DNA of 61,770 bases from a virus (taxonomy: Duplodnaviria; Caudoviricetes). The notes under the pieces were generated by a model that was not told the origin of the DNA, searched no databases, and was given only the letters and a program-made list of their open reading frames with translations. Positions 4,366 to 42,076 of this stretch are shown in pieces; within the stretch, counting starts at the first letter, position 1, and each line of letters begins with the position of its first letter. The stretch spans positions 1 through 61,770 of IMG/VR virus record IMGVR_UViG_3300035438_000760. The stretch is one strand, 5' to 3'. A program made the translations under genes and the position numbers.

Positions 4366-5492
4366 ACAAGTCATTGGAAAATGTGTTGAAGGCTTTGGAG
4401 CAGGACGCTTTGGCGTTTTGTTCGGAGTCGGATTGGGCGATCGTTGTCGCTGAATGCGAGAGGGCTGGGAATGTTCGTCGTGTTTCTAAGTCGGCTCAGG
4501 TGATTTTGGAGAAGGCTATGTCTCGTTCTGAGGCTGGTCGGTTTGCGGCTGAACAGCGTTGGAAGAATCATGTGAAGGAGGGTGATGGTAGCGGAGGGAG
4601 AATTCCCAATCCGCCCGGGTCGTCGGTTCGTGGCACAAGATCTGCTTTTAAGACTCCAGAATCTAAGGCTAATGCTAAAAAAATGATGCGAGACGCATTG
4701 TTATACGGTGGGTATAACGGTATAGAAGTTGCTGAAATTTTGACTGGCAGAGGAAATAACATTGCCAAAAAACAAAGTCGCAGGTGGTTGAAGTTGTATG
4801 GCTTTACGGACGGTCAAATACGAGAGTTTGTTGGCAGAGACACCGTTGAAACAAGTGGCAGTGGAACTCCTAAAGAGAAATACTCGCCAGTGCAATACCA
4901 AGCGGTTCGGGATGCGATACCTCAAATCAGTGCGGACAATGCTAAGAAGTTGACTCAGTATCTTGCTGATAATGATCTTCTTGGTGGTACTGCTGGGATG
5001 ACTCCTCAGCAGATGCTTGATAAGTGGGTGCCTCATTTGGATCGTGCTTTGGGTGGTAGCGAGACTGCAACTCCTAAAACGGCACCAGTAAAAAGTGGTG
5101 GTGAACGGGGTTCGGGTTCGTTTGATGATGGAACACCTTTTCATGGTAAGTTTTCAAGCCCGACAAACAATGACGGCGAAGGCGACGGCACTTTAGGTAC
5201 CAGCCGTGTTAACCATCCTGTTTACAAAACACCGAAGTATAAGGCTGAAGTGAAAGCGGCGGCTCTGTACCAGTTGCATAACGAGATCGTAAAAATGCAT
5301 CGGCAGGCAGGCAAACAAATTCCAAATTCTGCCAAGCCTTACATGGATGCTCTAAATTCGTTGTCAAATGTCAACGAAATGTACGGCATGGACTCTGGCA
5401 AATCCATTGTTGCTTACACCATTAGCAATATTAAATTTTTTGGTGAGCAAGGCAAAGCGTTAAAAGCGGAGTTGTCCGCTCGGTTGAAATAA
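4362..5492 (+). CDS. Tagged multi-domain cargo protein, unknown function
   Basis: Shared ~50-aa leader plus EKAMSRSEAGRFAAEQRWKNH; several domains separated by low-complexity linkers. Confidence 0.7.
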   Translation: MNKSLENVLKALEQDALAFCSESDWAIVVAECERAGNVRRVSKSAQVILEKAMSRSEAGRFAAEQRWKNHVKEGDGSGGRIPNPPGSSVRGTRSAFKTPESKANAKKMMRDALLYGGYNGIEVAEILTGRGNNIAKKQSRRWLKLYGFTDGQIREFVGRDTVETSGSGTPKEKYSPVQYQAVRDAIPQISADNAKKLTQYLADNDLLGGTAGMTPQQMLDKWVPHLDRALGGSETATPKTAPVKSGGERGSGSFDDGTPFHGKFSSPTNNDGEGDGTLGTSRVNHPVYKTPKYKAEVKAAALYQLHNEIVKMHRQAGKQIPNSAKPYMDALNSLSNVNEMYGMDSGKSIVAYTISNIKFFGEQGKALKAELSARLK

Positions 5493-5520: not shown

Positions 5521-6462
5521 ATGCGACAAGGTTTGGAATCAGTTTTAAAAATGTTGGAGCCGTTTGCTCTCGGATTTTGTTCCGATAGTGAGTGGTCTGA
5601 TGTGGTTGCTGAGTGCGAATATGTTGGTGGTGTTTCTGGTGTGTCGGTTTCGGCTCAAAGGATTTTGGCTAAGGCGGAGTTTGGTTCTCGTTCGGAGGCT
5701 GGTCGTTATGCGGCATTACAGCGTTGGAAGACCCATATCCCTGTTGACGATGTAATCACCGCTTACCCTAATGCGAAACCTGCTGTGGCTGTTGGGGAAC
5801 CGTTCCCTCCTCCTCCTACGCCAGATACTGAACCTGATCCTAAGTATGGTGAGGAAAGCATTCGTCTGGCTAGAGAACTTCGTGCCAAATCGGTGCTTCT
5901 TGAACCTGAAGTTACAAACATGATTTTGGCGGTTGCTCAAAAGACTGGTGCCGAAACGCCTGACCTTAAACATCGTTTGAAGGCAACAGGTAGTCTTGCT
6001 CGCAAGATCCATAATGAGGGTATGGCTGAACATGACGGTGATTTTGTTAAGTCTGCTGAGGGTATCTCAGATGCGATTCGTTACACAATGGTGATTGATG
6101 ATGATAACTATTTGGGTGCGGCTCAGCAGATTATTAAGGATTTTGAGTCCAGTGGATACAAGATTCGTAACAAAAACTTTTGGCAGACGGGCGATCCTTT
6201 TGATGCGATGACTTTAAAGTTGTCTAAGGACGGGGTTACTACTGAGTTGCAGATGTTGACTCCTGCGGCGAAGAAAGCCAAGGAACTGAATCATCCGTTG
6301 TATGAGATTTATCGTGATCCTTCTACACCGATGCTCACTCGGATGAGTGCTTGGAAAAAAATGGTTGATGTAGCCAAGTTAACGCCTCGTCCGTTAGGCT
6401 ATTCCTTATTGTTAACACTTGGAACTTTGGTTCTTCAAAAACCTGATTGGGCGTTGATGTGA
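5521..6462 (+). CDS. Tagged cargo protein with RelA/SpoT-like nucleotidyltransferase domain
   Basis: AKAEFGSRSEAGRYAALQRW tag; RLK..SL.RK, DAIRYT, ELQ and H.LYE.YR motifs. Confidence 0.7.
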   Translation: MRQGLESVLKMLEPFALGFCSDSEWSDVVAECEYVGGVSGVSVSAQRILAKAEFGSRSEAGRYAALQRWKTHIPVDDVITAYPNAKPAVAVGEPFPPPPTPDTEPDPKYGEESIRLARELRAKSVLLEPEVTNMILAVAQKTGAETPDLKHRLKATGSLARKIHNEGMAEHDGDFVKSAEGISDAIRYTMVIDDDNYLGAAQQIIKDFESSGYKIRNKNFWQTGDPFDAMTLKLSKDGVTTELQMLTPAAKKAKELNHPLYEIYRDPSTPMLTRMSAWKKMVDVAKLTPRPLGYSLLLTLGTLVLQKPDWALM

Positions 6463-6659
6463 GATATTTTGCGAGTGATCTTGATGGGCGACCGAACACG
6501 CTGTACCGTTTTGATGTTTCGGGTTCTGACATTGTTGAGGAAAAGTGGACGGGCGTTGATTGGGTTCCGTCTAATGTGCCGTCTGAACATTTGGTTGAGG
6601 GTCAGCACGATATTTGGGAGTTGTCGTATGAGACGGCAAGGAAATTTTTCCCTATTTAA
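6459..6659 (+). CDS. Small acidic protein, candidate immunity partner of the RelA/SpoT-like domain
   Basis: GTGA translational coupling to the upstream stop; 66 aa. Confidence 0.55.
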   Translation: MRYFASDLDGRPNTLYRFDVSGSDIVEEKWTGVDWVPSNVPSEHLVEGQHDIWELSYETARKFFPI

Positions 6660-8126: not shown

Positions 8127-8587
8127 TTAGGACTGAGACGGCAAGCATTGTGGGTGTGTTGGTGGCTGGTTTTCCGAGTGTGAAGATGAGTCGGGAAACG
8201 GTTGAGGTTTGGCATCGTGCTTTGCATGATTTGCCGTTTGAGGATGTGAAGGTTGCTGTTGAGAAGTTGTTGATGACTTCTGAGTGGTTCCCGACGATTG
8301 CTTTGATTCGTAAAGCGACTTTGGATGCGATGGGCATGTTGCCTATGTCGGCGGATGAGGCTTGGGTTGAGATTCTGGGTGCTATCAACGATCATGGTTA
8401 CGCTGGTTACCCCGAATTTTCGCCTCTCGTGCGTGAGGCGGTGTTGCAGGTGGGTTGGCGTGATATTTGCATGTCAACGCAACCTGAGGCGATTAGGAGG
8501 TCTTTCGTGAAGGCGTATGATGCGATTGCTTTGAAGCAGACCCATTTGGTTTTGACTGCACCACTGGAGTTGACAATGGGGGGATAG
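8123..8587 (+). CDS. Replicative helicase loader/inhibitor (G39P-like)
   Basis: VEVWHRALHDLPF...WFPTIALIR...ADEAW pattern; coupled to the initiator. Confidence 0.75.
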   Translation: MIRTETASIVGVLVAGFPSVKMSRETVEVWHRALHDLPFEDVKVAVEKLLMTSEWFPTIALIRKATLDAMGMLPMSADEAWVEILGAINDHGYAGYPEFSPLVREAVLQVGWRDICMSTQPEAIRRSFVKAYDAIALKQTHLVLTAPLELTMGG

Positions 8588-8820
8588 GAAATGTTGATCG
8601 GTGTTGAGGTTGTGGTTTAAGTTTTTTGTGGCAGGATCGTGATCCGTCTAAATGGAGAGATCATGTCGCAAGAGCAGGTTGAAATTTTGTTGAAGTATTT
8701 GTCAAGGTTGACTCCACGGGGTCGTGAAGAGGAGAAGGAATTATTGTGGGTGATGAGGTCATTGAGGGTTACGAAAGTGTCAGCGACACGCTAAAGTCTG
8801 CTCAACGAGAGGAGCCTTTA

Positions 8821-9078
8821 GTGGAATTCGGAACTGTAAATATTGGTGTGAAAGCCGAAAATGAAGATGACTTGTTGAGGCAGTGCGGTTTATTGACTGA
8901 CCAGATGCGAGATCATCAGTTGGCGATCAGCATGTTGAACGATCAGCGTCGGCGGATTGTTCGGCAGTTGCGGTCGTTTCGTGTGCCGTATCGGAAAATT
9001 GCTAATTCGGCTGGAGTGTCGGATCAAGCGTTGTATGCAGATTTGCGTAAGCATCCAGTAGAGGAGACTGCCAAGTGA
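8821..9078 (+). CDS. Small HTH DNA-binding protein
   Basis: VPYRKIANSAGVSDQALY helix-turn-helix; GAGGAG RBS. Confidence 0.6.
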   Translation: MEFGTVNIGVKAENEDDLLRQCGLLTDQMRDHQLAISMLNDQRRRIVRQLRSFRVPYRKIANSAGVSDQALYADLRKHPVEETAK

Positions 9079-9452
9079 ATAATTTGACCATTGTAGGGAA
9101 CATGGTTGCTCAACCTGAAGTGCGATTCACTCCGAGCGGGGTTGCTCAAGCAACTTTCCGTGTTGGTGTCAATCGTCGGTTTCAGTCCGCTGGTGAGTGG
9201 AAGTCTGAAGGGACTTTCTTTACCTGTGTGGCTTGGGCTGAATTGGCTGAAGCGGTCGCAGATGTGAATAAGGGTGACCGTGTGATCGTTGTCGGTCGGA
9301 TGGCTTGCCGTGAGTTTGAGTCCAATGGTGAGAAGCGCAAGGTTTGGGAGATCGCCGTTGAGGATCTTGGGCATAGTTTGAAGCCTTTGAAGTCGGCTAA
9401 GGCTCCAGAACAGGCTCGTGTTGTTGAATCTGAGGCTGAACAGCCGTTCTAA
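9075..9452 (+). CDS. ssb: Single-stranded DNA-binding protein
   Basis: NNLTIVGN...PEVRFTPSG...KGDRVIVVGR OB-fold; acidic C-terminus ending PF. Confidence 0.9.
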   Translation: MNNLTIVGNMVAQPEVRFTPSGVAQATFRVGVNRRFQSAGEWKSEGTFFTCVAWAELAEAVADVNKGDRVIVVGRMACREFESNGEKRKVWEIAVEDLGHSLKPLKSAKAPEQARVVESEAEQPF

Positions 9453-25531: not shown

Positions 25532-26190
25532 GCGAACAGCACACTTCAGGAATCTTTGATCGTTATAGAAGTATGAACAAAAAACAGGAGGACAACATGT
25601 ACACATGCGAATGCCAACACTCTGAGGAATACCTTGAGTATTTTAAAGAGTTAGCAAAACTGCCCGACGAAAGCAAAAAATTGCTGAAGGTCATTATGGA
25701 ACCGTTTGAGGGCGAAGAGTTTTCAGTCAAGTGCAAGGGCTGTGCTGATCTTGAGTTGATGAGCGCAATGGTTGAAGCGTCTGGTCTGCCTGAAGTGGAA
25801 TTTGATTGGAGCGATCCTTGCCCAGCCGATTTTGTCACTCTTGCGGACGAAGATATCAATCTGAAAGCCCAAGAGATCGCACGAGCAATCGTTTCGGGTG
25901 AGTCAATTTCGCCAGCAAGCAACCGCAAACTGCTAATGCACTGGGCGGGCATTGATGACGATGAGGTTTACTGCCGATATGTGGAAATTGGAAACTGGAT
26001 TGCGGAAGATCGCAAACTTCGTGAGATGGACGATGAAGAAATGGATGATTACCATCGTGCGAAAGACGAAATGAAAGGTTTGATTGACGAGATCATGTCG
26101 CCAGAGTTAATCGCTGAGGCATTGAAGCATTACGAAGAAATCAAGTCGGTCACGGATTCGCTTGAGCGTTTGTGGGAAGCCGAAGAGTAG
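25528..26190 (+). CDS. Acidic hypothetical protein (start may be 25598)
   Basis: Long ORF ending just before a terminator. Confidence 0.6.
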   Translation: MSEQHTSGIFDRYRSMNKKQEDNMYTCECQHSEEYLEYFKELAKLPDESKKLLKVIMEPFEGEEFSVKCKGCADLELMSAMVEASGLPEVEFDWSDPCPADFVTLADEDINLKAQEIARAIVSGESISPASNRKLLMHWAGIDDDEVYCRYVEIGNWIAEDRKLREMDDEEMDDYHRAKDEMKGLIDEIMSPELIAEALKHYEEIKSVTDSLERLWEAEE

Positions 26191-26208
26191 GGAAGTCAGC
26201 GGGTTCAG

Positions 26209-26236
26209 AAAAGGGACGGGCGACCGTCCCTTTTTT
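26209..26236 (+). terminator. Intrinsic terminator (possibly bidirectional)
   Basis: AAAA-GGGACGG-GCGA-CCGTCCC-TTTTTT. Confidence 0.85.
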
Positions 26237-26285
26237 GTTGCTTAAATACGGTTCAGCACTACTGGGGTATGGTGAGCGGATGGTT

Positions 26286-27332
26286 ATGCCTGCCTCCACA
26301 CAATTTATTTTGAAGCAACTGGAGCCGTTCGCTCAGTGTGAGCCTCATATCTGGGATTTGGTTGTGCAGGAAGTTGAGTCGCATGGACTCAACCAGATCA
26401 GTAAGTCATCCATGATTGAGTTGAAGGTGGCTAAGGCTGGTTGGGAGCGTATGGAGAAAGCAAGGTACGCATCTCGCAGTGAAGCGTCACGATTCGCCGC
26501 CGAACAGCGGTGGAAAGGGCATGCGAAGAAAGAACCGTCTTCAGGTATGCGGAAAGCGACAGTTGCCGAACGAAAGCAATTGGGTGTCCCTCCCGCGTGG
26601 ACTGATGTAGAAATTGCTGACAGTCCAAAGGGTGTTAACGGTTTATTGTTTAGAGGTATTGATGCGAAAGGTCGTGTGCAGTCCAAGTACACCGAAGAGC
26701 ATTCTGCTAAACGATCTAAATTGAAGTTTAAACGGATTTTGGAATTGGAAACTCATTTAGGAAAGTTAGATGCAACGCTTGAAAAGGGTGTGAAATCTGG
26801 AGATGAGCATGCCGTGTGTCTTTCAATTATTCGCCAAGGCGGTTGCAGACCCGGATCGGATAACGAAACTTTGGGTACGGTCAAGGCTTTTGGGGCTACA
26901 ACTTTGGAGGCTCGTCATGTGAAGGTGGCTGGCGATGTTGTGAAACTGGATTTTGTTGGCAAGTCGGGCAAGCAGAATCAGATTGAAATTAAGGATAAAA
27001 ACCTTGCTTCGGCGATGCGAACCTTGTTAAAAGGGAAGGGCAAGTCGGACAAAGTGTTTGCTTCGGTGGATGCTCCGTCTTTGCTTGAGTATCAGCGGAC
27101 AATTTTGCCTAAGAAGTTTTTGTTGAAAGATTTGCGGACTTCGTTGGGGACTAAAACGGCTTTGTTGGCGATCAAAAAAATGGCGGTTCCGAAAACTAAG
27201 ACTGCTTACAAGAAAGCGAAGTCTGAGATCGGCAAAATTGTTTCGGAAAAGTTGGGTAATACGCCTGCTATTGCGTTGCAAAGTTATATCAACCCGATGG
27301 TTTTTGGAGTTTGGGAGGGTGTCAGTGAGTGA
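26286..27332 (+). CDS. Type IB DNA topoisomerase carrying the leader and SRSEA..AA..RW tag
   Basis: VPPAWTDV, GIDAKGRVQ, RPGS, FVGKSG, KDLRT and LGNT...SYI catalytic motifs. Confidence 0.88.
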   Translation: MPASTQFILKQLEPFAQCEPHIWDLVVQEVESHGLNQISKSSMIELKVAKAGWERMEKARYASRSEASRFAAEQRWKGHAKKEPSSGMRKATVAERKQLGVPPAWTDVEIADSPKGVNGLLFRGIDAKGRVQSKYTEEHSAKRSKLKFKRILELETHLGKLDATLEKGVKSGDEHAVCLSIIRQGGCRPGSDNETLGTVKAFGATTLEARHVKVAGDVVKLDFVGKSGKQNQIEIKDKNLASAMRTLLKGKGKSDKVFASVDAPSLLEYQRTILPKKFLLKDLRTSLGTKTALLAIKKMAVPKTKTAYKKAKSEIGKIVSEKLGNTPAIALQSYINPMVFGVWEGVSE

Positions 27333-27498
27333 TATTTCTGAAGAGGAAAATGCGTGGGCGGTTGCTGAGATGCAAAAGTTGATGGTCAAGATCAGTCCCG
27401 AAATGGTTGATGTTGGCACTTGGGATGACTGCATGGATGACGAGCCAGAGTCAAGCGAATACATAGCAATGGAAAAGGAAGTGGATGATGAAGATTGA
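27325..27498 (+). CDS. Small highly acidic protein, candidate TopIB partner/inhibitor
   Basis: GTG start overlapping the TopIB stop; D/E-rich, 57 aa. Confidence 0.5.
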   Translation: MSDISEEENAWAVAEMQKLMVKISPEMVDVGTWDDCMDDEPESSEYIAMEKEVDDED

Positions 27499-28516
27499 CC
27501 AGTTGATTGGTTTAATTCGGGATAATGGTCGTTTGGATTCGGCGACTTTCAATATTGTTGAACGGGAGATTCGCGGGAATGCGATGTCTAAGTCAACGGT
27601 GCTGATCGTTCGGTCAATGTTTGACAAAATGGAGAAGGCTGATCGGTCTTCTGCTGGTCGTATAGCGGCTCAAGCCCGCTGGAAGGGGCATGTGAAGCAA
27701 CAGCCAGTTCCAGCGCAAGGTGGGGCATCTGGAGTGGCTCCTGCGGGTGTTAAGGGCTATCAACGCCCCGAAATTTTTAAAGTTAAGACGGTTGAGGCGG
27801 CGATCGCCATGATGAACGAGGGCAAGACCGTTGAATTAGAAAATGATGGTCAGGCTCACACTCTTTTGGTGGAGTTAGCCAGAATTGCTAACGATGCGAA
27901 GATAAAAGGTCGGGAAGCCCCGAACTATGACTTGTGCAAAGTGACTGTGCCGGGCACAAACCTTTTTTGTGGTGAGAACAAGGGGATCCCTCGTTCCAAG
28001 ATGCCTCAGTTAAGGAGTAAGCCTGTTGCTGGTTCTGAAGCGGACAAGTTGCCTCGTAACCAGTGGGGTGAGGTTGAAGGTGCGCCAATATTCCAGAAGC
28101 ATTTGGAGGATCTGGGTATTTCGGTGAAGAGCCAGACAATGCGAGCGTCGCAATTGAAGGCAACCCAACTTGATATGAAAGGCACTCAGATTGCCTTGAT
28201 GATGACTGACTCAAAGTTTGATCCCAAGGGTGAAGAGATTTGGGTGACTCGTGATGGCTACATTTTGGATGGGCATCATCGTTGGGCGGCGACGGTTGGT
28301 CGTGACTTGGCTGACGGAAAAATCGGTGATCTTGATTTGAAGGTCAAAGTTATTGATGCTCCGATTTCTGAGATTCTTCCGATGGCAAATTCGTGGACTC
28401 AAGAAATTGGTTTGAAGGCGATTGCTGGTCCTGCTACTGCTCCGAATGCTTCGGGTGCGATGGAGCCTGCTACGGATGTCAAAAAGAAATCTGGTGGTTG
28501 TGGTTGTGGTTGCTAA
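27485..28516 (+). CDS. Tagged cargo protein with ParB/Srx-like domain
   Basis: EKADRSSAGRIAAQARWKGH tag; LKATQ...YILDGHHRWAA; C-terminal CGCGC. Confidence 0.7.
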   Translation: MMKIDQLIGLIRDNGRLDSATFNIVEREIRGNAMSKSTVLIVRSMFDKMEKADRSSAGRIAAQARWKGHVKQQPVPAQGGASGVAPAGVKGYQRPEIFKVKTVEAAIAMMNEGKTVELENDGQAHTLLVELARIANDAKIKGREAPNYDLCKVTVPGTNLFCGENKGIPRSKMPQLRSKPVAGSEADKLPRNQWGEVEGAPIFQKHLEDLGISVKSQTMRASQLKATQLDMKGTQIALMMTDSKFDPKGEEIWVTRDGYILDGHHRWAATVGRDLADGKIGDLDLKVKVIDAPISEILPMANSWTQEIGLKAIAGPATAPNASGAMEPATDVKKKSGGCGCGC

Positions 28517-31918: not shown

Positions 31919-31947
31919 TGGGGTGATGCTTCGGCTCACCCCATTTT
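31919..31947 (+). terminator. Hairpin, probable terminator before the head operon
   Basis: TGGGGTGA/TCACCCCA stem followed by TTTT. Confidence 0.55.
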
Positions 31948-31970
31948 GCTATCCTCGCCATGTGGCTGAC

Positions 31971-33401
31971 ATGCGTGAACTAGGAACATCAGGATTTCAA
32001 CATTCTGGCGGTTCTGTCACAGACGAATTTTTAGCGAATCTTCAAGGCATTCGTGGTATTCGTACATGGCGTGAAATGGCTGATAACGATCCTGTGGTCG
32101 GTGCGATGCTGTTTGCTGTTGAACGGCTAATCCTGAATCTGAAATGGAAAGTAGATCCATTTATTGAAGAAGGTAAGACCAAAGCATCTAAGAAAGATGA
32201 AAAGGTCGCCGAATTTGTTGAGCAATGCTTGTATGACATGGAAAATTCGTGGGACGGTACTGTCGCTGAGATCCTGTCGTTTTTGACTTACGGCTGGTCG
32301 TACTCCGAGATCGTTTACAAGAAGCGGGGCGGGATGGACACCAAAGACAAGTCCAAACGATCCAAATTTAATGACCAGAAAATTGGTTGGAGAAAGATTT
32401 CTAACCGAGCGCAAGAAACATTGTTCCAGTGGGATATTGACGAATCTGGCGATGTGAGAGCAATGCAACAATTAGATCCTTCTGCTGGTAAGGGTCTGGT
32501 GTCAATTCCCATTGAGAAGGCTCTGCACTTCCGTACAACCTCCGCTAGAAACAATCCTGAAGGGCGAAGCCTTTTACGCAATGCGTACCGCCCGTGGCGA
32601 TTTAAACGCACCATTGAAGAAATTGAAGCGATCGGCATTGAACGAGATCTGGCTGGTCTGCCAGTTGCTTATGTACCTCCGTCCATGCTTTCGTCCACCG
32701 CAACATCAGATGAGGTGTCTGCCCGCAATGCGATCCAAAGCATGGTTCGTGGAATCAAACGAAACCAAAACGAAGGCATCCTTTTCCCGCTCGCTTTTGA
32801 TGAAGGCGGACGGGAGATGTACAAACTGACTCTTCTGTCCAGTGGTGGCAACCGCCAGTTCAACACTGATGCCATTGTTGCCCGCTATGACCAGCGAATC
32901 ACAATGACAATTCTGGCTGACTTCATTTTGTTGGGTCACGAAAAAGTCGGTTCGTTTGCTTTGGGGTCGTCAAAGATTGACTTATTCTTGACTGCGATCG
33001 CCCAGATGACCGCCCAGATTTCTGATGTGTTCAACAAGGATGCTGTTCCGAGACTGTTGAAGTTAAACGGCATGGATCCTCAGCGCGCACCCGTGATGCG
33101 AGTAGAAGAGTTGCAGTCCACCGATCTAACTGTTCTTGGCGACTTCATCACCAAAATGGCTGGTGCTGGAGCGTTGCAAGTTGACTCTGGTCTGGATGAG
33201 TTTGTTCGTGATCTTGCTGGCTTGCCACCAAAGGTTGAAGAAGAAGGTGCTTTACAACAAGGTGCTCAGATGCAACCGAATGCGATGCCCCAACCTCCTG
33301 TAGCACCGCAGTCTGCTCCGCCCGCTGAAGCGCAATCCGCTGAAGCGCAACCTGCTCAAGCGTCTGGTAGTGGTTCGGTTGAAGACTACATTATTCAATA
33401 A
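31971..33401 (+). CDS. Portal protein (DUF935/Mu gp29-like)
   Basis: NNPEGRSLLRNAY, EAIGIERDLAGLP and GSFALG motifs; first gene of the head operon. Confidence 0.88.
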   Translation: MRELGTSGFQHSGGSVTDEFLANLQGIRGIRTWREMADNDPVVGAMLFAVERLILNLKWKVDPFIEEGKTKASKKDEKVAEFVEQCLYDMENSWDGTVAEILSFLTYGWSYSEIVYKKRGGMDTKDKSKRSKFNDQKIGWRKISNRAQETLFQWDIDESGDVRAMQQLDPSAGKGLVSIPIEKALHFRTTSARNNPEGRSLLRNAYRPWRFKRTIEEIEAIGIERDLAGLPVAYVPPSMLSSTATSDEVSARNAIQSMVRGIKRNQNEGILFPLAFDEGGREMYKLTLLSSGGNRQFNTDAIVARYDQRITMTILADFILLGHEKVGSFALGSSKIDLFLTAIAQMTAQISDVFNKDAVPRLLKLNGMDPQRAPVMRVEELQSTDLTVLGDFITKMAGAGALQVDSGLDEFVRDLAGLPPKVEEEGALQQGAQMQPNAMPQPPVAPQSAPPAEAQSAEAQPAQASGSGSVEDYIIQ

Positions 33402-33432: not shown

Positions 33433-34269
33433 ATGGCTGATGCTGTCTCCCAAATTTCGTCAAGTTTGTCTAAGAGTCTGTTGGGCGTTATTGGTGGTTC
33501 TTCAGATGGCGCAACCGCTTTAGGTCGGCTGAGTTCGGTTGACATTCTGGATCAACTTCAAGAGTTAACGCCAGCGATTATCGGTCCGTTGATGAACGAA
33601 CTTGAATTGTCTGCTGTGGATGCGATCGCTTCCATCCCGCCACAGTTAAGTATCGGAGTCAGTTTCAATACCACTGACCCTCGCGCACTAGCGTGGGCGA
33701 CCCAGCGGGCTGGCGAGTTTGTTGTTCAAGTCAGTGACGAAGTTCGTACCCAAATCAGAGATCTGATCTCTCGTGGTTACCGTGACCAAATGACCGTAGA
33801 TGCCATTGCAAGAGAACTGCGAAACATTGTTGGTTTGCATTCTCGTTGGGCGACCGCCGTTGAAAACATGTACGCCAAAACTCTTAGCGGGCTTGTCAAT
33901 TCGGGTGTGGCGTTAGGTATGGCTACTACGCAGGCGACCAGTCTTGCGGGGGCGTATCGGGACAAGTTGATTGCTTCACGGGCTAACACGATCGCCAGAA
34001 CCGAAGTCATCGGGGCTAATAACGCTGGACGCTATTTGGGGTGGCAACAGTTCATGCAACAGTCTGGTTATCCGCCGAACTTGATGCAGAAAGAATGGGT
34101 TGTTGGTCCTGATGGTTGGCAGGGTATCAATGTATGCGATCTGTGTCTTGAGTTAGATGGCACGACTGTTGGTGTGAATGATGAGTTTCCTAGTGGTCGG
34201 TTGATGCCTCCGTTGCATCCGAATTGTCGTTGTACTGCTTTGCTGATTTTTCCTGAGGATGGTTTGTGA
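33433..34269 (+). CDS. MuF / SPP1 gp7-like minor head protein (start uncertain)
   Basis: RANTIARTE, KEW, CDLC and PPLHPNCRC. Confidence 0.88.
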   Translation: MADAVSQISSSLSKSLLGVIGGSSDGATALGRLSSVDILDQLQELTPAIIGPLMNELELSAVDAIASIPPQLSIGVSFNTTDPRALAWATQRAGEFVVQVSDEVRTQIRDLISRGYRDQMTVDAIARELRNIVGLHSRWATAVENMYAKTLSGLVNSGVALGMATTQATSLAGAYRDKLIASRANTIARTEVIGANNAGRYLGWQQFMQQSGYPPNLMQKEWVVGPDGWQGINVCDLCLELDGTTVGVNDEFPSGRLMPPLHPNCRCTALLIFPEDGL

Positions 34270-35972
34270 TGCCGTACAAGATTGAGCAGAGGGCTGACAA
34301 GTTTGTTGTTGTTCGTGAGGACGACGGGAGAGTTGTTGGTACGCATTCGTCTAGGGCTAAAGCAACGGCTCAGTTGAAAGCGTTGTATATCCATGTTAAG
34401 GATGCCATTGAGAAAGCGAAGTTCGGTTCACGAAGCGAAGCAGGCAAGTACGCCGCCCACATTCGGTGGATGCGAGAGCGGGGTATGGAACCGTTAACGC
34501 CTGATGCTTGGCGTAGCCAGAACGCTCAACCAGTGGAGCCGACAAGAAGTTCGTATGAGAGTTCGTTGGATGCGATCACAAGTTTTGCTAGTAACGAGTT
34601 TCAAAGCAGATTGCGTGATGCTGGTAATGAAATAAATGCGCGGTCGTATGACAACGGAAGACCTGTTTCAGTGAAGGACTATTTGCTTATCAATGAAATG
34701 TCCAAAGTTGCAGTCCGTGATCCTAATGATCCTCAAAACACATTGGTTATTTGTTCTCCTCCTTTGATGGCAGTTGAACGAGAAGTCAATGAACTAGGCG
34801 GATTAGTACATGATGCGATATTAGAAAAGATGAAGCAAGAAGGGTTCTTGTTGCCAAACGGCGAATTTGATGAGACTCAACAAAAAGAGTTACGCAAAGT
34901 TAGAGAAGAATCAGAGTCTGTTGTTCAAAGCATTGCGGACAAGGGCAAGGAACTTGGACTGCAAATGTATACCTCCGAAACAAGGGGTGTTCAAACTTCA
35001 AAAATGAAAGTCATGTGGCGTGGGGCTGATGATATTGATGCTTCAAAAATGCCTCCAGAACTTCGTGCGCTTCACGAAAGTTGGCGCGACGCAGAAAAAG
35101 AATTGGATGGTGTGCCGTGGAGTTTACGAGATGCGAACACCGTTTTGAGAGATCGGGTAGAGAAAGCGGAAAAAGATTTTACCGAACTTGCGCTTAGTGA
35201 ATTTGAAACTTGGTTTGATGCTAACCACAATCCGTCTGGCGGTAGTCATGTCAGTCGGTTGACTGAACTTAAAAAAATTGCGGCGGACGCTAGTAGGGCT
35301 AGTTATAATGCACCTACTTATATTGATCGTTACCGTCACACTTTCGCTGAGGTTTTGAAAGATCTTGGTGTTTCTGGTCAGTCTCAAATTGGGACATCCG
35401 ATCAACTCAGAATTTCAAGCGGGACAGCATCCAAAGAACTTAAAGATAAATTTGTGAAACAAATTCACACATATTTTCCTGCTTCAACAATTCAAACTTT
35501 TAAAAATAAATATCCGCAAGGTTTGAAATTGACTAAATCAAATTCTGGTGGTCATTGGGTTGACTCTCAAGTAAAAATTCAATCCGATTTAACTCTTGAA
35601 ACAAATCTCCATGAATTTATGCATGCTGTAACCTATGCAGATCCGAGGGCTAACTTTGTTGAACGAGCGTTTTACATGCGACGACGAACTGATGGTGGTC
35701 GTGGCAATCAGCCGATTCAAGAAAGAGTTAAAAACGGGTGGGAGAAACCTAAAAAGACTTATGACGGCGGTAGAGGTAAACGGAGCGACTCAGAGTACAT
35801 TCGTGACGAGTTCCATTCGGAATATACGGGCAGGTACTACGACTCTGGGCATACCGAAACGATGACAACTGGTCTTGATCGTATTGCTGGGCGAGGTTCT
35901 AGTATTGAGGATCAAGATCACACAAACACTGTTATAGGTTTGCTTGTAGCGATTGGGTTGGGTTTCAAATGA
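34269..35972 (+). CDS. Tagged head-associated protein with C-terminal HExxH domain
   Basis: MPY...GTH...A.AQL.AL N-terminal module; EKAKFGSRSEAGKYAAHIRW tag; HEFMH. Confidence 0.75.
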   Translation: MPYKIEQRADKFVVVREDDGRVVGTHSSRAKATAQLKALYIHVKDAIEKAKFGSRSEAGKYAAHIRWMRERGMEPLTPDAWRSQNAQPVEPTRSSYESSLDAITSFASNEFQSRLRDAGNEINARSYDNGRPVSVKDYLLINEMSKVAVRDPNDPQNTLVICSPPLMAVEREVNELGGLVHDAILEKMKQEGFLLPNGEFDETQQKELRKVREESESVVQSIADKGKELGLQMYTSETRGVQTSKMKVMWRGADDIDASKMPPELRALHESWRDAEKELDGVPWSLRDANTVLRDRVEKAEKDFTELALSEFETWFDANHNPSGGSHVSRLTELKKIAADASRASYNAPTYIDRYRHTFAEVLKDLGVSGQSQIGTSDQLRISSGTASKELKDKFVKQIHTYFPASTIQTFKNKYPQGLKLTKSNSGGHWVDSQVKIQSDLTLETNLHEFMHAVTYADPRANFVERAFYMRRRTDGGRGNQPIQERVKNGWEKPKKTYDGGRGKRSDSEYIRDEFHSEYTGRYYDSGHTETMTTGLDRIAGRGSSIEDQDHTNTVIGLLVAIGLGFK

Positions 35973-38350
35973 TTAGGTTCGGGTATGTTCAGAGCGGTGT
36001 TCAGCGTTTCGCTGAGTGGACTGAAGAGTTTGGGCTTGTATGCGAAGACGATTTGCTTGATGCCGTCAATCTTTTGATTGGGGCTAAGGCTCCTGTTCGG
36101 TGTTCGTGGGTCGGGTATTTGATGGAAGCGTCGCTTGATACGGCTGTGCAGGCGTGGGGGACTATCAATAAGGCATTAAAGTGGTGTAATGGTGTTGAGT
36201 TGGTTCGTTGTACGCCACCATTGATTGAGTATGACGAGTTCTCGGATCCTGAAGAGGATCTGGTTGAGAAGGCTATGTCTCGTAGCGAAGCAGGCAGAAT
36301 AGCCGCAGAGGCAAGATGGAAGAACCATGTCAAAGCGTCTGTAGCAAATTCAATTATTGATCGTGTTAAGGCGTATGGCGGTTTGTCGGTCAAAATGTTG
36401 ACTGGTGAAGAGCCAACTTCTGGCTACATGGTTGCTCAAAGAGGTCACAATCGTGAAGTGCCAAGTGCCGACTTTTTTGATCCCGCTAAAGGGCAGGCGA
36501 TTCTCAAGAAGTATTTGATTGAAAAAAGGGATGTTTTCGGAAAGGAACAGTACCTAGGTTTATGGTACGATTCCGCAAACGATGAAGTTGTTTTAGATGT
36601 AGTTGACAACATACAGAAGAAGAGCGATGCGACCCGTGAGGGTGCGGAAAGAAATCAGCAGGCGATTTGGGATGTCAAAGGACAAAGAGAAATCAGCACA
36701 GGCGGTTCAGGAGACAGAGAGTCCGAACCAGCCATTGATGTTAGTAAAACCGCAGGTTCCGTTATCGGAGATGGACGACGACGAGATTGGGCTTTTCGCC
36801 AAAGATATTTGGGAGAAGTTTATGGAGACACGCAAGCCTTAATTGAGTTTGATAAAGCGAAGTTCAGTTCACGATCTGAAGCAGGTAAGTACGCCGCTCA
36901 TATTCGTTGGATGAATCAGAGGGGTATGACCCCGATGACGGTTGACCAGTGGAAATCACAAAACACTGGTGGTTCTGAGCGCATGCGAAAGATCCAAGAG
37001 TTGCAGATGGATGTGTCAGAGCGACTGAGAAAGTTCAATATTCTTTTGGGTGAGTCGCATGTTTTCCAAGATGGTATTTGGAACAGTTACGCAGAAAGCA
37101 AAATAAGTCAGGGTACAAATAAAGTTTTGTTGGTTCAGCCTGAAGACTGGGAAAAAACTGAGATTCCTTCAAAGGGCACCCCTGCTCAGTTGTGGGCTGT
37201 AGAGGTTCCAACAAGCATTAACGATTTTGATTACAAGGTTGCTGTTCCTAATGCTGAAGTCATGCGATTGATGGAAGATGTCAAAACTTTAGGTGGGTTA
37301 ATAGAAGATGAGGCTTTGGCACGGGCAAACGCAAGTTCGTCAGAGGTAATAGATCCTGTTGTGTCAACTATGGAGTTCAAAAGAAAAATAACTGGTCTTC
37401 AGCAAGAGATTAAAAATAATGAATGGCTCATGCATTACGGTATGAAAAGTTTAGTGAATTTCCTTGGGGATCCCGACAACGAGAAAACTAAATTTGAAGA
37501 ATGGGTTGATTCTGGTCTGCCTTCAAAAATAAGTGCTTCACAAAACGCAGTGAGCGAATTTGGTGAATTTGGGGAAAAAACCGTTCAAGACATTATTGAT
37601 AAATACGATGTTCGTGATTTTGACAAGTTTGTAGATGTTATGAACAATGAAATATTGTCTTCTCAAACAGCGGTAAGCGAAGCAGGTTTTGACCAAAACT
37701 CGTTAGCAAAATATAGGCGTGAAGTGTTGCGTGAGATTCGTCCGCACAGTACGGATGAAGGCATGCACAATGAAATAATTACGGGCAACCCTAAAGATAG
37801 CGGTACTGCGCTTGAATCTCATGTTGCAAAAGCAATGCGATTGTTGCCTTCAGCGTGGGTTGAAAAATTGAAGAACTACACAAAACAACACAACGCTCAA
37901 GGGAAAATGAGTATTACACCTGCCGTTGAAGGCAGATCCGGCTACAGCGAACCACATCATTTCATTCAAACTTCAACCGATGCCCAGCCGATGACTCTTG
38001 TCCATGAGTTAATCCATGCTGTTGAAGCGTCTAATCCTGCCATGCGGGTGATGGTCAACTCTTTCCATATCAATAGACGATTCGGTAATTTCAGAGCGGA
38101 TGACGAAAAGTTTGGTAGCACTTTCAGCAAAAGGTTACTAGGCAAATATGAGGAAGAAAAAAATGGGTTTGTGGAAGACAGTTACGCCGATAAATATTCT
38201 GGTCGTGAATATCCGTCTTATGAGTTGACTGCTCGTGAGCAGTTAACAACGGGTACCGACATGTCGTTGTTTGTTAACAACATGCGAACGCATGGTTTGA
38301 TTGACTTGGATCAGTTGAATTTTACTTTAGGAATGTGGGCTTCAGCATGA
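35969..38350 (+). CDS. Polyvalent protein: leader domain, tag, SAM-lyase-like(?) module, tag, HExxH module
   Basis: Tags at 36266 and 36851; HELIH domain homologous to the C-terminus of 34269..35972. Confidence 0.75.
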   Translation: MIRFGYVQSGVQRFAEWTEEFGLVCEDDLLDAVNLLIGAKAPVRCSWVGYLMEASLDTAVQAWGTINKALKWCNGVELVRCTPPLIEYDEFSDPEEDLVEKAMSRSEAGRIAAEARWKNHVKASVANSIIDRVKAYGGLSVKMLTGEEPTSGYMVAQRGHNREVPSADFFDPAKGQAILKKYLIEKRDVFGKEQYLGLWYDSANDEVVLDVVDNIQKKSDATREGAERNQQAIWDVKGQREISTGGSGDRESEPAIDVSKTAGSVIGDGRRRDWAFRQRYLGEVYGDTQALIEFDKAKFSSRSEAGKYAAHIRWMNQRGMTPMTVDQWKSQNTGGSERMRKIQELQMDVSERLRKFNILLGESHVFQDGIWNSYAESKISQGTNKVLLVQPEDWEKTEIPSKGTPAQLWAVEVPTSINDFDYKVAVPNAEVMRLMEDVKTLGGLIEDEALARANASSSEVIDPVVSTMEFKRKITGLQQEIKNNEWLMHYGMKSLVNFLGDPDNEKTKFEEWVDSGLPSKISASQNAVSEFGEFGEKTVQDIIDKYDVRDFDKFVDVMNNEILSSQTAVSEAGFDQNSLAKYRREVLREIRPHSTDEGMHNEIITGNPKDSGTALESHVAKAMRLLPSAWVEKLKNYTKQHNAQGKMSITPAVEGRSGYSEPHHFIQTSTDAQPMTLVHELIHAVEASNPAMRVMVNSFHINRRFGNFRADDEKFGSTFSKRLLGKYEEEKNGFVEDSYADKYSGREYPSYELTAREQLTTGTDMSLFVNNMRTHGLIDLDQLNFTLGMWASA

Positions 38351-40743
38351 AACTTGTTTGGGTAACCGTTGACGGTGAAACAATTTTGTGGGATGAAGGT
38401 GTTTTGGATGCTTCGCCTGACTTTTTTGAAAATGTTGCGTTGTTGGTTGATGCGAAGGTTCGTGTTCGTTCTCCACGGTATTACTTTGCTGAGGATGTGG
38501 CTCGGATGGATTCTCCGTTTGGGGCTTTGTTGACTGTTGAGTTTTTGTTGGATTTGTTGAATGTGGGTTTGGTTGAGGCTCCGATGCTTTTTGGTGAAGC
38601 GGATCCTTTGTTGACTGATAATGATTCTTTGGTTGTTTCTGTTGAGAAGGCTATGTCTCGGAGTGAAGCGGGCAAGTATGCGGCGGAGCAACGCTGGAAG
38701 AACCATGCGAAGAAAGAAACAACAAAGCAAGAAACGCTTCTATCTCCTACTGATGACGCTGAGATTGCTAGGGCTACTGGTCGCCCGTTGAGTTGGGCGT
38801 TGCCCGCTACACGAGATCCTGAATTAAATGAAATTTTGGGTCGGCTGGTAGCAGATTTTTCTTCGTCGCCACCGAGGTATCACGAATATGATCGTGTTGT
38901 CCGTGATCCAGCCACAAAAGAGTTGCTCAAGTATTTGGAAAGCAAAGGCATTGTTGGGAAATCGGATTTTGAGGCGGGTAAAACCAATGCTGGGATTATG
39001 GCTGTTGGGTTGCTTCTGAATGGCTTGCAAGCAAACAGTTCTTCGGCGTGGTCAACTTCGGTTCCAAAAGGGTTTGCTCCGTATTTTAAAGCACGAATGA
39101 TTGCTGAGGAAGGTTCTCCAGTAATCAATGTTAATGCGTATGCGCTTAACCAAATCATTAGTAGTGGCAGGTACAAAACCCAGTTTGAAACTCAAGAGTC
39201 AAACGGTGCGTTGAACCCGTATATTCGTGCGGCTTTTGAGTCAGGTGCAATGGGTTTGCACCCAAACATGGATGCGACTAAGCGTCCCGTGTACGGGACA
39301 ATGCAATCGCATGATTCAATTGGCAATACTCACCCAATGAGCCAATACGGTACAATTTCGCTTCAGTTGAACGAAAGTGTTCGTGAGCGTTCAACGGTTT
39401 CGTATAACGATTCTTTGGGTATGTCTATAGAGACTGCACCTGCTGACAGTACGGGCAAAGAGTTGGATCGGATGTTTAATACTGGTTCAAAGGGTGGACA
39501 TCTTGATTATGTTGAGACTCAGATTCATGGTGGTGTTTCGTTTAGCGATGTGAAAGCAATATGGGTGAATGAGAAGTATGCGCCCGGTGATTTTGAAAAT
39601 GTGACCGCGATATTGGATAAGTATGGGTTGTCCAATATCCCTGTGATGCGTGTTGGTGTTGATGATTTCTACAAAGCGAAGTTTAGTTCACGGAGTGAGG
39701 CTGGCAAGTATGCGGCGCATATTCGTTGGATGAACCAGCGTGGTTTGACTCCGATGACGGCTGACCAGTGGACTGCTAGTCAGAGTGCTGATGCGACACC
39801 TGTTGTTACGGCTCCGACTCGTGTGACGGCTAGTGGTGTGGATTGGGATCAGCCTGTACCACAGTTCAAAACTGTTGATGAAGCGCAAGCGTGGATTGAT
39901 GCGAAGTGGGGTAAGCGTGATGGTGGTTTACCAGACAGAGAATTTAAGATTGCCCTCACTGAAGGCAAGCGCATGAGCGGTTATTTTTCGTATGGGTTTG
40001 CAAACATTGAGGCAACACAACATTGGATTGAAAAAATAGATCAGGTGTTTAAAGAATTTCCTGAAATAGCAAACGCAGTTAGTTTTGTTGCGTCTGCTGA
40101 ACCTCCGTATGGATATGAACGCGCTCTCGGTTGGGCGGGTCGTGCATCAGCGTCGTTATATTTTAACCGTGGTATTTGTTCCGATCTTAATCTTGTGGAC
40201 GCTACGATTAAAGAATGGAAAAAGACGGGTTATTGCGCTACAAATGACCCGACTGCTGTTTTGTGGCATGAATTTGGTCATCATTTAGGTTATGCGGCGG
40301 GTAACGCTAATTTGTATGGCAACCTGACAGAGGTACGCATGCCTAGAACTTCGCAACCTCTTGCCGACATTAACCAGAGAGATCAAAAAGCGTATGAGAA
40401 GGCTATTCGGGTATTGGTTAAGCCTTTGATAATTAAAAGTATTAACAACGACCGAAAAGTAAAAGGGTTGAAACCGTTGCACTTTAAAGGGTTGTCCGAG
40501 GCAATGTCGGGTAATAGCAGAACTAAAGACTCTGACGCTTTAACTTGGCGTGACGAAATCAAAAAGCAGTTAAGCACTTATTCGTTGAGTAACTATAACG
40601 AAATGATTGCCGAATCGTTTGCCCAATATGCACACGGAGTATTTACTGGTGCTGAAATATCACCGTTGGCTAGAGGAGTTGTTGAAGGTTTACGGGGCTA
40701 TATTGCAGGTAAGCCGTTAGTACCGTCAGGAGGATCGCAATGA
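38347..40743 (+). CDS. Polyvalent protein: leader domain, tag, DUF3626-like module, tag, HExxH module
   Basis: Tags at 38644 and 39670; RPVYG...YVETQIHGGV; HEFGH...YSLSNYNEMIAESF. Confidence 0.75.
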   Translation: MKLVWVTVDGETILWDEGVLDASPDFFENVALLVDAKVRVRSPRYYFAEDVARMDSPFGALLTVEFLLDLLNVGLVEAPMLFGEADPLLTDNDSLVVSVEKAMSRSEAGKYAAEQRWKNHAKKETTKQETLLSPTDDAEIARATGRPLSWALPATRDPELNEILGRLVADFSSSPPRYHEYDRVVRDPATKELLKYLESKGIVGKSDFEAGKTNAGIMAVGLLLNGLQANSSSAWSTSVPKGFAPYFKARMIAEEGSPVINVNAYALNQIISSGRYKTQFETQESNGALNPYIRAAFESGAMGLHPNMDATKRPVYGTMQSHDSIGNTHPMSQYGTISLQLNESVRERSTVSYNDSLGMSIETAPADSTGKELDRMFNTGSKGGHLDYVETQIHGGVSFSDVKAIWVNEKYAPGDFENVTAILDKYGLSNIPVMRVGVDDFYKAKFSSRSEAGKYAAHIRWMNQRGLTPMTADQWTASQSADATPVVTAPTRVTASGVDWDQPVPQFKTVDEAQAWIDAKWGKRDGGLPDREFKIALTEGKRMSGYFSYGFANIEATQHWIEKIDQVFKEFPEIANAVSFVASAEPPYGYERALGWAGRASASLYFNRGICSDLNLVDATIKEWKKTGYCATNDPTAVLWHEFGHHLGYAAGNANLYGNLTEVRMPRTSQPLADINQRDQKAYEKAIRVLVKPLIIKSINNDRKVKGLKPLHFKGLSEAMSGNSRTKDSDALTWRDEIKKQLSTYSLSNYNEMIAESFAQYAHGVFTGAEISPLARGVVEGLRGYIAGKPLVPSGGSQ

Positions 40744-40976
40744 CAATGGGAATATCAATGTGTTGGGCGTGTAAGCACTCAAGAGGTAACGCAACTGAAA
40801 TAGATGAAATATTGACAGGGACATGCGATGCGTTTCCTGATGGTATCCCTCTTGAAATTTATGCAGGCGGGTTTGACCATCGCCAAAAATTTGCTGGTGA
40901 TAACGGTGTTAGGTTTGAACCAGTGACCGAAGAAGAAGGTTCTTTGGCTGTGAGCATGGTTGAGGACAATTTATGA
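40740..40976 (+). CDS. Small Cys/His protein, candidate partner/immunity of the upstream HExxH domain
   Basis: CWAC...CDAFPDGIP...FDHR...GDNGVRFEP; ATGA coupling. Confidence 0.65.
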   Translation: MTMGISMCWACKHSRGNATEIDEILTGTCDAFPDGIPLEIYAGGFDHRQKFAGDNGVRFEPVTEEEGSLAVSMVEDNL

Positions 40977-41155
40977 TTTTGATTGCAATGGTGGACGATG
41001 CGAAGGTGTTTGACATTGAAGACGATGACCCGATGTGGGGTACTCGTGTCATTCTGGAGCGTGGAGGCGTTGAAAGCGCACCGCTTTTGTTGGAAAATGT
41101 GGTTACCAAAATGTCTATGAGCAACTGGCGATGGGTCAACCCCCCTACTAAATAG
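40973..41155 (+). CDS. Small hypothetical protein (candidate partner/immunity)
   Basis: ATGA-coupled 60-aa ORF. Confidence 0.5.
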   Translation: MILIAMVDDAKVFDIEDDDPMWGTRVILERGGVESAPLLLENVVTKMSMSNWRWVNPPTK

Positions 41156-41185: not shown

Positions 41186-42076
41186 ATGGATACAACCGAA
41201 ATTGACCAGTGGATAAACGGCGATCTTTCTTGGGAAGATCTTTCGGAGAGCGCACAAACGGCTATTGACGGTGAAGTTGACGATGCGAAGCCTGTTGCCA
41301 GTATGGAGTTAGTCCACAAGTCGGTTGCTGAGAAGCGGTTTACTTTAGGTCCGTGGTATATCCCGAACCGTTTGGATGCTCATAATGAGTGGACAGACTC
41401 TGATGAGTTGCAGGCTGGCTTGTGGGATTATGTCCGCAAGGGTGATCGTGGTATCCGTTTACAGCACAATCGTGACATTGTGGCTGGAGAATGGGTTGAG
41501 GCAATGCAACTTCCTGTTCCTGTCCAGATGCAGAAAGCGGCAAACGGAGAAACTGTTGAATACCCTGAAGGAACCGTTTTTCTTGGTGTTGTGTGGAAAC
41601 AGTGGGCGTGGGATCTCGTGAAGAACGGCAAAATCAAAGGTTTTTCTATTGGTGGTTCGTCGGCTCGGTTGCCAATTGAGCCTGTCAATAAGGGAATCAA
41701 GGTTTCTCCGACTTTCATTCCTGCTTTGATCCGTGTCTTGGGTAAGAGTTATGCGGTTCGCCCAGATGAGGGCGGTGTCCGTGTTTCTTCAGGTTTGGAC
41801 TTTGTTGTTTTTGATCCGTTCCAAGTGGATTTGGTTACTAAGTCGGTTTCGGATGGCTTTGTTGCTGATGCGAATCAGGTGTTGGCGTTTTCGCAGGCTA
41901 TTTTGACTGGCGGGATAGATCATGGTTTGTGGGTCAATACTGGTGATTCATGGTCGTTTGTGAAAGCGAAGTTTGGGTCACGGGTTGAGGCTGGTAAGTA
42001 TGCGGAGCATGTTCGTCGGGCTGTCGCTTCGGGGGAGACTCCTTTGGGTGTGGTTGAGTTTTCCGAAAATCTGTAA
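41186..42076 (+). CDS. Prohead protease, XkdF-like serine peptidase, with a tag near the C-terminus
   Basis: Y.P...DAHNEW, LQH, GTVF and GFSIGG motifs; VKAKFGSRVEAGKYAEHVRR. Confidence 0.85.
   Translation: MDTTEIDQWINGDLSWEDLSESAQTAIDGEVDDAKPVASMELVHKSVAEKRFTLGPWYIPNRLDAHNEWTDSDELQAGLWDYVRKGDRGIRLQHNRDIVAGEWVEAMQLPVPVQMQKAANGETVEYPEGTVFLGVVWKQWAWDLVKNGKIKGFSIGGSSARLPIEPVNKGIKVSPTFIPALIRVLGKSYAVRPDEGGVRVSSGLDFVVFDPFQVDLVTKSVSDGFVADANQVLAFSQAILTGGIDHGLWVNTGDSWSFVKAKFGSRVEAGKYAEHVRRAVASGETPLGVVEFSENL

Follow-up and report, generated by a model that had tools for sequence, protein, structure and literature searches.

Zincin modules in the head module of an uncultured phage and their likely partner domains, which are fused to the next cargo protein

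Operons that encode a protease together with its inhibitor are known from cells, staphopain-staphostatin being one of them, and the capsid targeting peptide of phage T4 is cut by the prohead protease. The locus described here belongs to an uncultured phage (Duplodnaviria; Caudoviricetes), of which the complete IMG/VR virus record IMGVR_UViG_3300035438_000760 (61,770 bases) was analysed and is called the window. Between the genes for a MuF-like minor head protein and the prohead protease, three large open reading frames (ORF1, ORF2, and ORF3) each end in a zincin module with an HExxH motif. The modules of ORF1 and ORF2 (M1a and M1b) belong to one family, M1, and that of ORF3 (M2) to another. 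ORF2 and ORF3 open with an acidic domain of about 100 amino acids (aa), named leader 2 and leader 3, which is followed by a recurring tag with the core SRSEAG..AA..RW. It is likely that a leader is the cognate binding partner of the M1 zincin encoded just upstream. We also lean towards an inhibitor or immunity-like role for this partner, which is fused here to the next cargo protein.

The MuF polymorphic toxins of temperate phages (Jamet et al. 2017, PMC5576092), in the sections drawn on here, share with the locus a position in the head module near portal and MuF, an enzyme domain at the extreme C-terminus, and a small ORF directly after it. Their repertoire also includes metallopeptidase, ADP-ribosyltransferase, and RelA-like domains. 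Unlike those toxins, MuF is a separate 299-aa gene product in the window, and ORF1-3 gave no PF04233 match. The enzymes are carried by tagged multi-module proteins, and the partner in this phage is fused to the next effector and is not a free ORF. Neither M1 nor the leader matched a Pfam toxin or immunity family. The polyvalent proteins (Iyer et al. 2017, PMC5512222) likewise combine unrelated enzyme domains on one polypeptide, including zincin, ADP-ribosyltransferase-like, GNAT, RelA/SpoT, and ParB-like domains. These proteins have a link to the phage head, and they are proposed to be delivered with the virion and processed by proteolysis. However, the portions of that paper used here describe no dedicated zincin partner and no fusion of a partner to the next protein, and M1 and M2 lack a Pfam match to the MPTase-PolyVal family.

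In the protealysin-emfourin operon, as far as the source excerpted here goes (PMC9505478, citing Chukhontseva 2021), the inhibitor binds the active-site region of the protease from the same operon. The gene for an intracellularly made protease is followed by that for a protein of about 100 aa, which binds 1:1 near the active site and protects the producer. Such operons are cellular and have free inhibitor genes, and the leader of the window had no fold likeness above Z 3.8. The internal proteins and Alt of phage T4 are diverse effectors that one short peptide, the capsid targeting sequence, addresses to the prohead core (Virol J 2010, PMC3012670, in part). In contrast to the folded 80-aa domain found here, the T4 signal is a short N-terminal peptide and, in the parts cited, is unrelated to the product of the preceding gene. 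Immunity domains fused to other immunity domains are described as polyimmunity proteins (PMC3482391, in the parts cited). An immunity domain fused to the following toxin was not found in the portions used of the polymorphic-toxin, MuF-toxin, and polyvalent-protein literature (PMC3482391, PMC5576092, PMC5512222), supplementary tables excluded. The general kind is already known from polyvalent proteins, from protease-inhibitor operons, and from effectors in the head module that have small partners beside them. The M1 and leader families, their strict pairing, and the fusion of the partner to the next effector are new, and the families could be listed in supplementary tables.

Context loci were collected with a protease query (73 loci), with one free leader as the query (locus L075), and with a degenerate DNA pattern of the tag (59 stretches). 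All ORFs of 135 sources (the window and the fetched loci, numbered with an L) were then searched with leader, M1-core, and tag profiles, and all loci were contigs of uncultured phages from one tag-bearing clade. Twenty-one of 23 distinct leader ORFs lay directly behind an ORF ending in M1; one of the other two was at a contig edge, and one was an exception (L079). Conversely, 22 of 27 distinct M1 domains were followed by a leader ORF, two were at a locus edge, and three were not followed by one (L079, L084, and L119). M1 ended 0-9 residues from the C-terminus in 26 of the 27 domains. The same association was counted over 104 non-redundant clusters of tag- or leader-bearing ORFs with an upstream neighbour, 15 clusters without an upstream ORF being omitted. 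A leader with M1 upstream was present in 17 clusters, a leader without M1 in one, M1 without a leader in none, and neither in 86 (Fisher p = 1.3e-18, uncorrected for relatedness). A sequence-only reading of this DNA had regarded each leader as the partner of the preceding zincin, and the outcome that would speak against it, a lack of genomic association, did not occur.

These counts bear on the view that a leader is a mere removable pro-peptide or targeting piece at the N-terminus of its own protein, unrelated to the upstream zincin. Three other tagged proteins of the window (at 4362, 5521, and 26172) carry a different leader family of about 50 aa with no HExxH domain upstream, and overlapping ATGA codons are generic in the operon, as this view would expect. 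However, none of the 86 leaderless tagged clusters follows M1, compared with 17 of the 18 leader clusters. The leader also occurs as a free gene, and the attached cargo changes while the upstream M1 stays. A generic pro-piece, as suggested by the second leader family, is contradicted by the M1 adjacency, the free leaders, and the cluster table, and it is extremely unlikely.

The ATGA overlaps themselves were dropped as evidence for pairing. They are present between ORF1 and ORF2 and between ORF2 and ORF3, as the sequence-only reading had noticed, but they are not special to junctions of effector and leader. ORF3 and the following 78-aa Cys protein, and that protein and the next 60-aa ORF, are joined in the same way, and the junction of MuF and ORF1 is GTGATG. 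Because every junction in the operon has such coupling, it adds nothing to the pairing.

Leader 2 has 97 aa and an isoelectric point (pI) of 4.20, leader 3 has 98 aa and a pI of 4.05, and both run to VEKA and the SRSEAG tag, in agreement with the acidic opening domain described before. Their direct resemblance to each other became weak without the tag. With the tag included, BLASTP gave 41% identity over 105 aa (E 5e-11). Without the tag, the identity was about 23% and BLASTP gave no match at E<1. The two are bridged by a leader in L007 (7281-9002), which matched leader 3 at E 9e-11 and leader 2 at 0.003, and by a common family. Searched against 1.84 billion representatives, a profile built from seven leaders matched 13 proteins at E<=1e-3. 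The leader stood at the N-terminus of a protein of 318-938 aa in eight of them, and the other five were untagged proteins of 93-121 aa.

Clustering at 90% identity gave 18 leader clusters. Nine were stand-alone genes of about 100 aa, as anticipated for a partner that follows the same HExxH family, and nine were fused through the tag to varied cargo. Natural free pairs occur in L007 (7281-9002 with 8972-9268), L076, and L100. The 5' side of the leader was M1, and the 3' side was module X, a DUF3626 module, a GNAT-like module, M1, M2, or a stop codon. The fused cargo was module X or DUF3626 in the window, DUF3626 or the GNAT-like module in L003, another M1 in L007, and M2 in L090. In L075 the leader is free, with a separate gene of tag and ParB-like module after it. 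The free leader of L075 (7974-8339) ends in an apparent decayed tag start, and the next gene (8378-9346), in another frame, encodes about 20 residues, a full tag, and the ParB-like module. Together these two genes look like a recently split leader-tag-cargo gene, judging from their sequences.

The AlphaFold2 (AF2) model of leader 2 had an overall predicted local distance difference test score (pLDDT) of 86.6, with a compact alpha/beta core at aa 1-82 (pLDDT about 90) and a disordered acidic tail at aa 83-97. For this fold, Foldseek found nothing at E<=0.001 in PDB and BFVD, and the best VIA match over solved chains had Z 3.8. The ESM Atlas held no usable leader relative, and the 17 leaders of the curated pairs described below had no common family in Pfam. 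As judged by these profile and family searches, the M1 zincin module and the predicted partner of about 80 aa are two protein families absent from Pfam.

Seventeen pairs from 13 contigs, with M1-core identities of at most 64%, were curated. The leader start overlaps or abuts the M1 stop in 16 of them. The identity matrices of M1 cores and leaders were correlated (Mantel Spearman r 0.55), and 0 of 5000 permutations reached this value, with no phylogenetic correction. In genomes with two pairs, the pairs grouped by subtype across genomes and not by genome; an M1b-type module goes with a leader-3-type in the window, L003, L090, and L123. By this grouping and the junctions, the block of long tag, M1, stop/start, and leader behaves as one cassette. 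A programmed frameshift or readthrough joining M1 to the leader was ruled out. The relative frames differ among the pairs, the stops are TGA or TAG, a common slippery motif is absent, and one of the 17 pairs has a 64-nucleotide (nt) spacer.

Adjacency could also reflect the co-inheritance of neighbouring DNA in one phage clade, with no physical or functional link, and the relatedness of the uncultured phages and the uncorrected tests would allow this. Against it stands the reshuffling around the pairs, even in close relatives. Between the window (35969-40743) and L003 (4695-9558 and 10001-12010), the modules between the tags are swapped though the proteases are 76% identical: DUF3626 replaces module X, and a GNAT-like module replaces DUF3626. 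ORF3 of L003 is split into two genes just 5' of its long tag. In relatives the protease tag is followed by further cargo; in L003 a Zeta-toxin-like P-loop domain (PF06414 E 4e-16) extends the protease behind the tag. The tags look like joints of recombination or fission. While flanking modules swap and genes split or fuse at tags, the pair persists down to 14-22% M1 identity, and a complex model of the pair passed its controls. Co-inheritance alone is therefore a very unlikely explanation.

The distant relatives L021 and L057, with protease domains 50-60% identical, carry the same X, DUF3626, GNAT, and RelA/SpoT-like modules in the interval from MuF to the protease (e.g., L021 1438-9839). They have no SRSEAG tag, and a different repeated motif, KH..G.HDQ.THGSWA, stands at the same module boundaries. 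Profile searches found neither M1 nor the leader in these two loci.

One complex, that of the M1a module and leader 2, was modelled from an own alignment of 17 rows for each, in three runs and three controls. The median score was 0.64 (runs 0.00, 0.76, and 0.64), and the best of the three controls scored 0.00. The pass mark of this score was reached by 58 of 80 solved complexes and by 2 of 110 mismatched pairs, counts that hold roughly because own alignments were supplied. The runs share at least 11% of contacts, and the pLDDT of the partner was at least 64. Confident contacts were located near the HExxH helix (residues 338-341, 353, and 355), elsewhere in the catalytic half (431-432, with the invariant Y432, and 454-461, with the nearly invariant D461), and in the N-terminal helices of M1a (122-129 and 251-265). 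The cognate complex proposed earlier was thus predicted above its controls.

The C-terminal homology of ORF1 (HEFMH...DEFHSEYTGRYY...ETMTTGLD) and ORF2 (HELIH...DSYADKYSGREY...EQLTTGTD) was wider than first claimed. BLASTP aligned aa 21-559 of ORF1 with aa 263-789 of ORF2 (23% identity, E 2e-22, tag included), and therefore the entire module of about 480 aa behind the tag is common to both. With the tag removed, a weak match between the two modules remained (tblastn E 1e-3 and 5e-4, against a small database), and both matched a family profile built from the two and five relatives (self-included). H361, E362, H365, Y432, Y437, and E443 were invariant in 17 M1 modules.

The zincins of lethal factor and the Pro-Pro endopeptidases (PPEP) belong to MEROPS family M34. 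The AF2 model of M1a (pLDDT 82.4) consists of a long N-terminal part made of helices and the catalytic half at the C-terminus. In an exhaustive structure alignment, residues 286-480 matched anthrax lethal factor with Z 7.3 and a root-mean-square deviation of 3.9 (150 residues aligned), and the catalytic half matched PPEP-2 and PPEP-3 with Z 6.1 and 6.0, the three matches spanning 134-150 residues. These alignments stood among many helical chance matches of similar Z, a range that is common for the aligner. The modelled catalytic half therefore weakly resembles these zincins, as a lead and not as membership. As in them, HExxH is followed about 70-80 residues on by a conserved Tyr and Glu. Unlike them, M1 has an N-terminal helical region of about 285 residues, and a match at the sequence level is absent. 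Foldseek with the whole M1a model found nothing in PDB at E<=0.001, and the M1 core profile had no match among PDB sequences at E<=10. Pfam gave no zincin-family match for ORF1-3 at E<=0.1, MPTase-PolyVal included, and none for the 17 M1 modules at E<=1; M1 may still be a remote relative of the MPTase-PolyVal family. Among the longer proteins of a 5.8-billion-protein set, of which the best 8000 candidates by shared words were scored, 14 M1-family matches were found, all unnamed or hypothetical and none with a cellular toxin context.

M1 profile matches were confined to loci with the SRSEAG tag, and none was found in the related loci with the KH..HDQ..HGSWA motif. This distribution would suit an M1 that is a processing peptidase of cargo polyproteins, with the leader as a docking or substrate domain that presents the tag of the next protein for cutting. 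Zincin autoproteolysis has been proposed for polyvalent proteins (Iyer et al. 2017, PMC5512222, in the sections drawn on). However, free leaders have neither tag nor cargo to present, and tag copies are also present at the end of the prohead protease and in front of modules in three dispersed loci that are distant from any M1. Such a role is distinctly unlikely.

The zincin module of ORF3 (HEFGH) gave no M1 profile match and forms its own family of four distinct members, as expected from the different type assigned to it before. M2 was C-terminal in all four, ending 0-16 residues from the end, and the 78-aa Cys protein came next in each case, its ORF overlapping by 4 nt, in a small sample of three lineages. 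This recurring free protein is a candidate partner of M2.

Several findings weigh against an inhibitory partner or against strict pairing. In L079, M1 is internal in a 1738-aa protein and the leader lies two genes downstream. In L084 and L119, the position behind a divergent M1 is occupied by an acidic ORF of 100 aa (2011-2313 and 3313-3615, respectively) in which hhalign could detect no similarity to the leader (probability 0.3%). This ORF may encode an analogous partner or one that has diverged very far. The window and L003 share 94% identity in leader 2 but only 59-64% in M1a, whereas a toxin-immunity pair that co-evolves tightly should diverge in parallel. The statistics overstate independence because adjacent DNA is co-inherited and a single clade supplied all pairs. 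Of the three complex runs, one scored 0.00, and no more than 11% agreement in contacts was guaranteed. The zinc ligands H361, E362, and H365 are outside the list of confident contacts, and therefore the model does not show that the active site is occluded. Searches of the leader with Foldseek (PDB and BFVD), VIA, Pfam, and the ESM Atlas matched it in fold or family to no known inhibitor or immunity protein. A partner of the leader kind is absent for the internal enzyme modules (X, DUF3626, and GNAT-like). M1 is at most a putative toxin, and such peptidases are possibly processing enzymes (Iyer et al. 2017, PMC5512222, in the portions considered).

Some of these points would suit a leader that binds M1 as an assembly adaptor or chaperone and not as an inhibitor, stringing the cargo into a chain of ORF1, ORF2, ORF3, and the Cys protein for co-packaging or aiding the folding of M1. 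Adjacency, co-variation, and the complex model fit this equally. The confident contacts reach into the N-terminal helices of M1 and leave out the zinc ligands, and leader 2 is better conserved than M1a. However, nine of the 18 leader clusters are free proteins of about 100 aa without cargo, with which a chain is impossible, and each cargo module already has its own tag. A small acidic protein behind a C-terminal enzyme is also the usual pattern of a neutralising partner, as the excerpted parts of PMC5576092 and PMC9505478 describe it. We regard the adaptor or chaperone role as rather unlikely.

We also considered, as a speculative possibility that is probably wrong, that the cargo forms a non-covalent head-to-tail train of ORF1, ORF2, ORF3, and the Cys protein. 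Each leader would clamp the zincin of the preceding protein, keeping the peptidases latent and the stoichiometry fixed, and the train would enter the prohead as a whole. The prohead protease would then take the train apart by cutting at the tags and so arm the zincins for injection, and the tags would also be recombination joints that move tag, zincin, and partner as one cassette.

For the favoured reading of the leader as an inhibitor or immunity-like partner, the following course is proposed. ORF1-3 would be virion-cargo proteins of the polyvalent type, encoded between MuF and the prohead protease and each ending in a zincin. The leader would bind the M1 zincin as it is made, and its synthesis may be coupled to that of the zincin because the stop and start codons overlap. 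The partner would silence the peptidase in the producing cell. This silencing is inferred from the same pattern in toxin-immunity pairs (PMC5576092, PMC3482391) and protease-inhibitor operons (PMC9505478), in the passages drawn on. In about half of the related lineages the predicted partner is a free gene of about 100 aa, and here the SRSEAG tag joins it to the N-terminal side of the next cargo protein. The putative partners therefore stand across a gene boundary from their zincins: leader 2 for M1a, leader 3 for M1b, and the free 78-aa Cys protein for the unrelated M2. The partner would be freed from the next cargo by cleavage at the tag, and the cargo may be packed into the head and then injected, as proposed for polyvalent proteins (PMC5512222, in part) and known from the internal proteins of T4 (PMC3012670, in part).

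The head module has the order portal, MuF, three large ORFs, two small ORFs, S78_2/XkdF-type prohead protease, GGACT gene, scaffold-like gene, and major capsid protein. Its features are listed in Table 1. Two or more unrelated effector-type domains share one polypeptide, module X and a zincin in ORF2 and a DUF3626/ADP-ribosyltransferase-like module and a zincin in ORF3. Module X matches phrog_17808 and was found again in 16 related loci. The DUF3626 module (PF12294 E 3.3e-12) had a tblastn match to a mycobacteriophage gene annotated as capsid maturation protease and ADP-ribosyltransferase. The N-domain of ORF1 recurs in 23 loci, often just 5' of the protease, and L013 encodes it together with the protease in a single ORF; anchoring of the first cargo protein is a possible role for it. 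INPHARED phages held no near match to the head module, and searches there with ORF2 and ORF3 gave only partial matches, to module X or DUF3626.

Table 1. Features of the head-module segment in the window, with inferred ORF start positions
Feature	Position	Strand	Details
Portal gene	31923-33401		directly upstream of MuF
MuF-like minor head protein, 299 aa	33370-34269	+	PF04233 E 2.2e-12; head-morphogenesis PHROGs
ORF1, putative cargo protein 1	34266-35972 (start 34266/34269)	+	small N-domain, long tag, M1a
ORF1 N-domain, 47 aa	34269-34409	+	phrog_3684
ORF1 long tag	from about 34410	+	
M1a zincin module of ORF1	34530-35969	+	catalytic half about 35385-35969, with HEFMH
ORF2	35969-38350	+	leader 2, short tag, module X, long tag, M1b
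Leader 2, predicted M1a partner domain, fused to ORF2	35969-36259	+	family profile E 2.4e-31 (self-included)
ORF2 middle	36263-36970	+	short tag about 36263-36328, module X 36332-36838, long tag 36851-36970
M1b zincin module, ORF2 C-terminus	36971-38350	+	HELIH
ORF3	38335/38347-40743	+	leader 3, short tag, DUF3626 module, long tag, M2
Leader 3, predicted M1b partner domain, fused to ORF3	38347-38640	+	family profile E 2.5e-26 (self-included); ATG at 38347 within the ATGA overlap
ORF3 middle	38641-39786	+	short tag 38641-38706, DUF3626 ADP-ribosyltransferase-like module 38713-39654, long tag 39670-39786
M2 zincin module, ORF3 C-terminus	39787-40743	+	HEFGH; family distinct from M1
78-aa acidic Cys protein, candidate M2 partner	40740-40976	+	3 Cys; pI 4.29; phrog_33375
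60-aa acidic ORF, role unassigned	40973-41155	+	83-85% identity in L002-L005
Prohead protease (S78_2/XkdF type)	41186-42076	+	PF14550 E 1.5e-9; tag copy near C-terminus from about 41960 (tag hidden Markov model (HMM), aa 259)

The tag is present in 11 copies in nine ORFs of the window. ORF1 has one copy, ORF2 two (tag HMM matches at aa 99 and 295), ORF3 two, and the prohead protease one near its C-terminus, and further copies are in five dispersed genes (3679, 4362, 5521, 26172, and 27485). The gene at 26172 encodes a topoisomerase IB according to Pfam. The second leader family stands 5' of the tag on three of the dispersed cargo genes (4362-4505, 5521-5667, and 26172-26453), with 58% identity between those at 4362 and 5521 (E 2e-16). 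Small acidic ORFs, overlapping or directly following, are located at the ends of the tagged RelA/SpoT-like gene 5521-6462 (ORF 6447-6659) and of the tagged topoisomerase-IB gene 26172-27332 (ORF 27238-27498). They may be further enzyme-partner pairs of the same pattern. A tagged ParB-like protein (27485-28516, with a DGHHR motif) terminates in the short Gly/Cys repeat GGCGCGC.

If the favoured reading is true, the phage makes protease effectors in its own producing cell without self-harm, each zincin being made with a co-translated partner that in some lineages is welded to the next effector. For uncultured phages, the pairing also supplies a simple rule by which the variable block from MuF to the prohead protease can be annotated. 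If the partners do bind and inhibit, the pairs would be orthogonal protease/inhibitor sets, and the fused form would be a testable case of effector-partner pairs staggered across gene boundaries.

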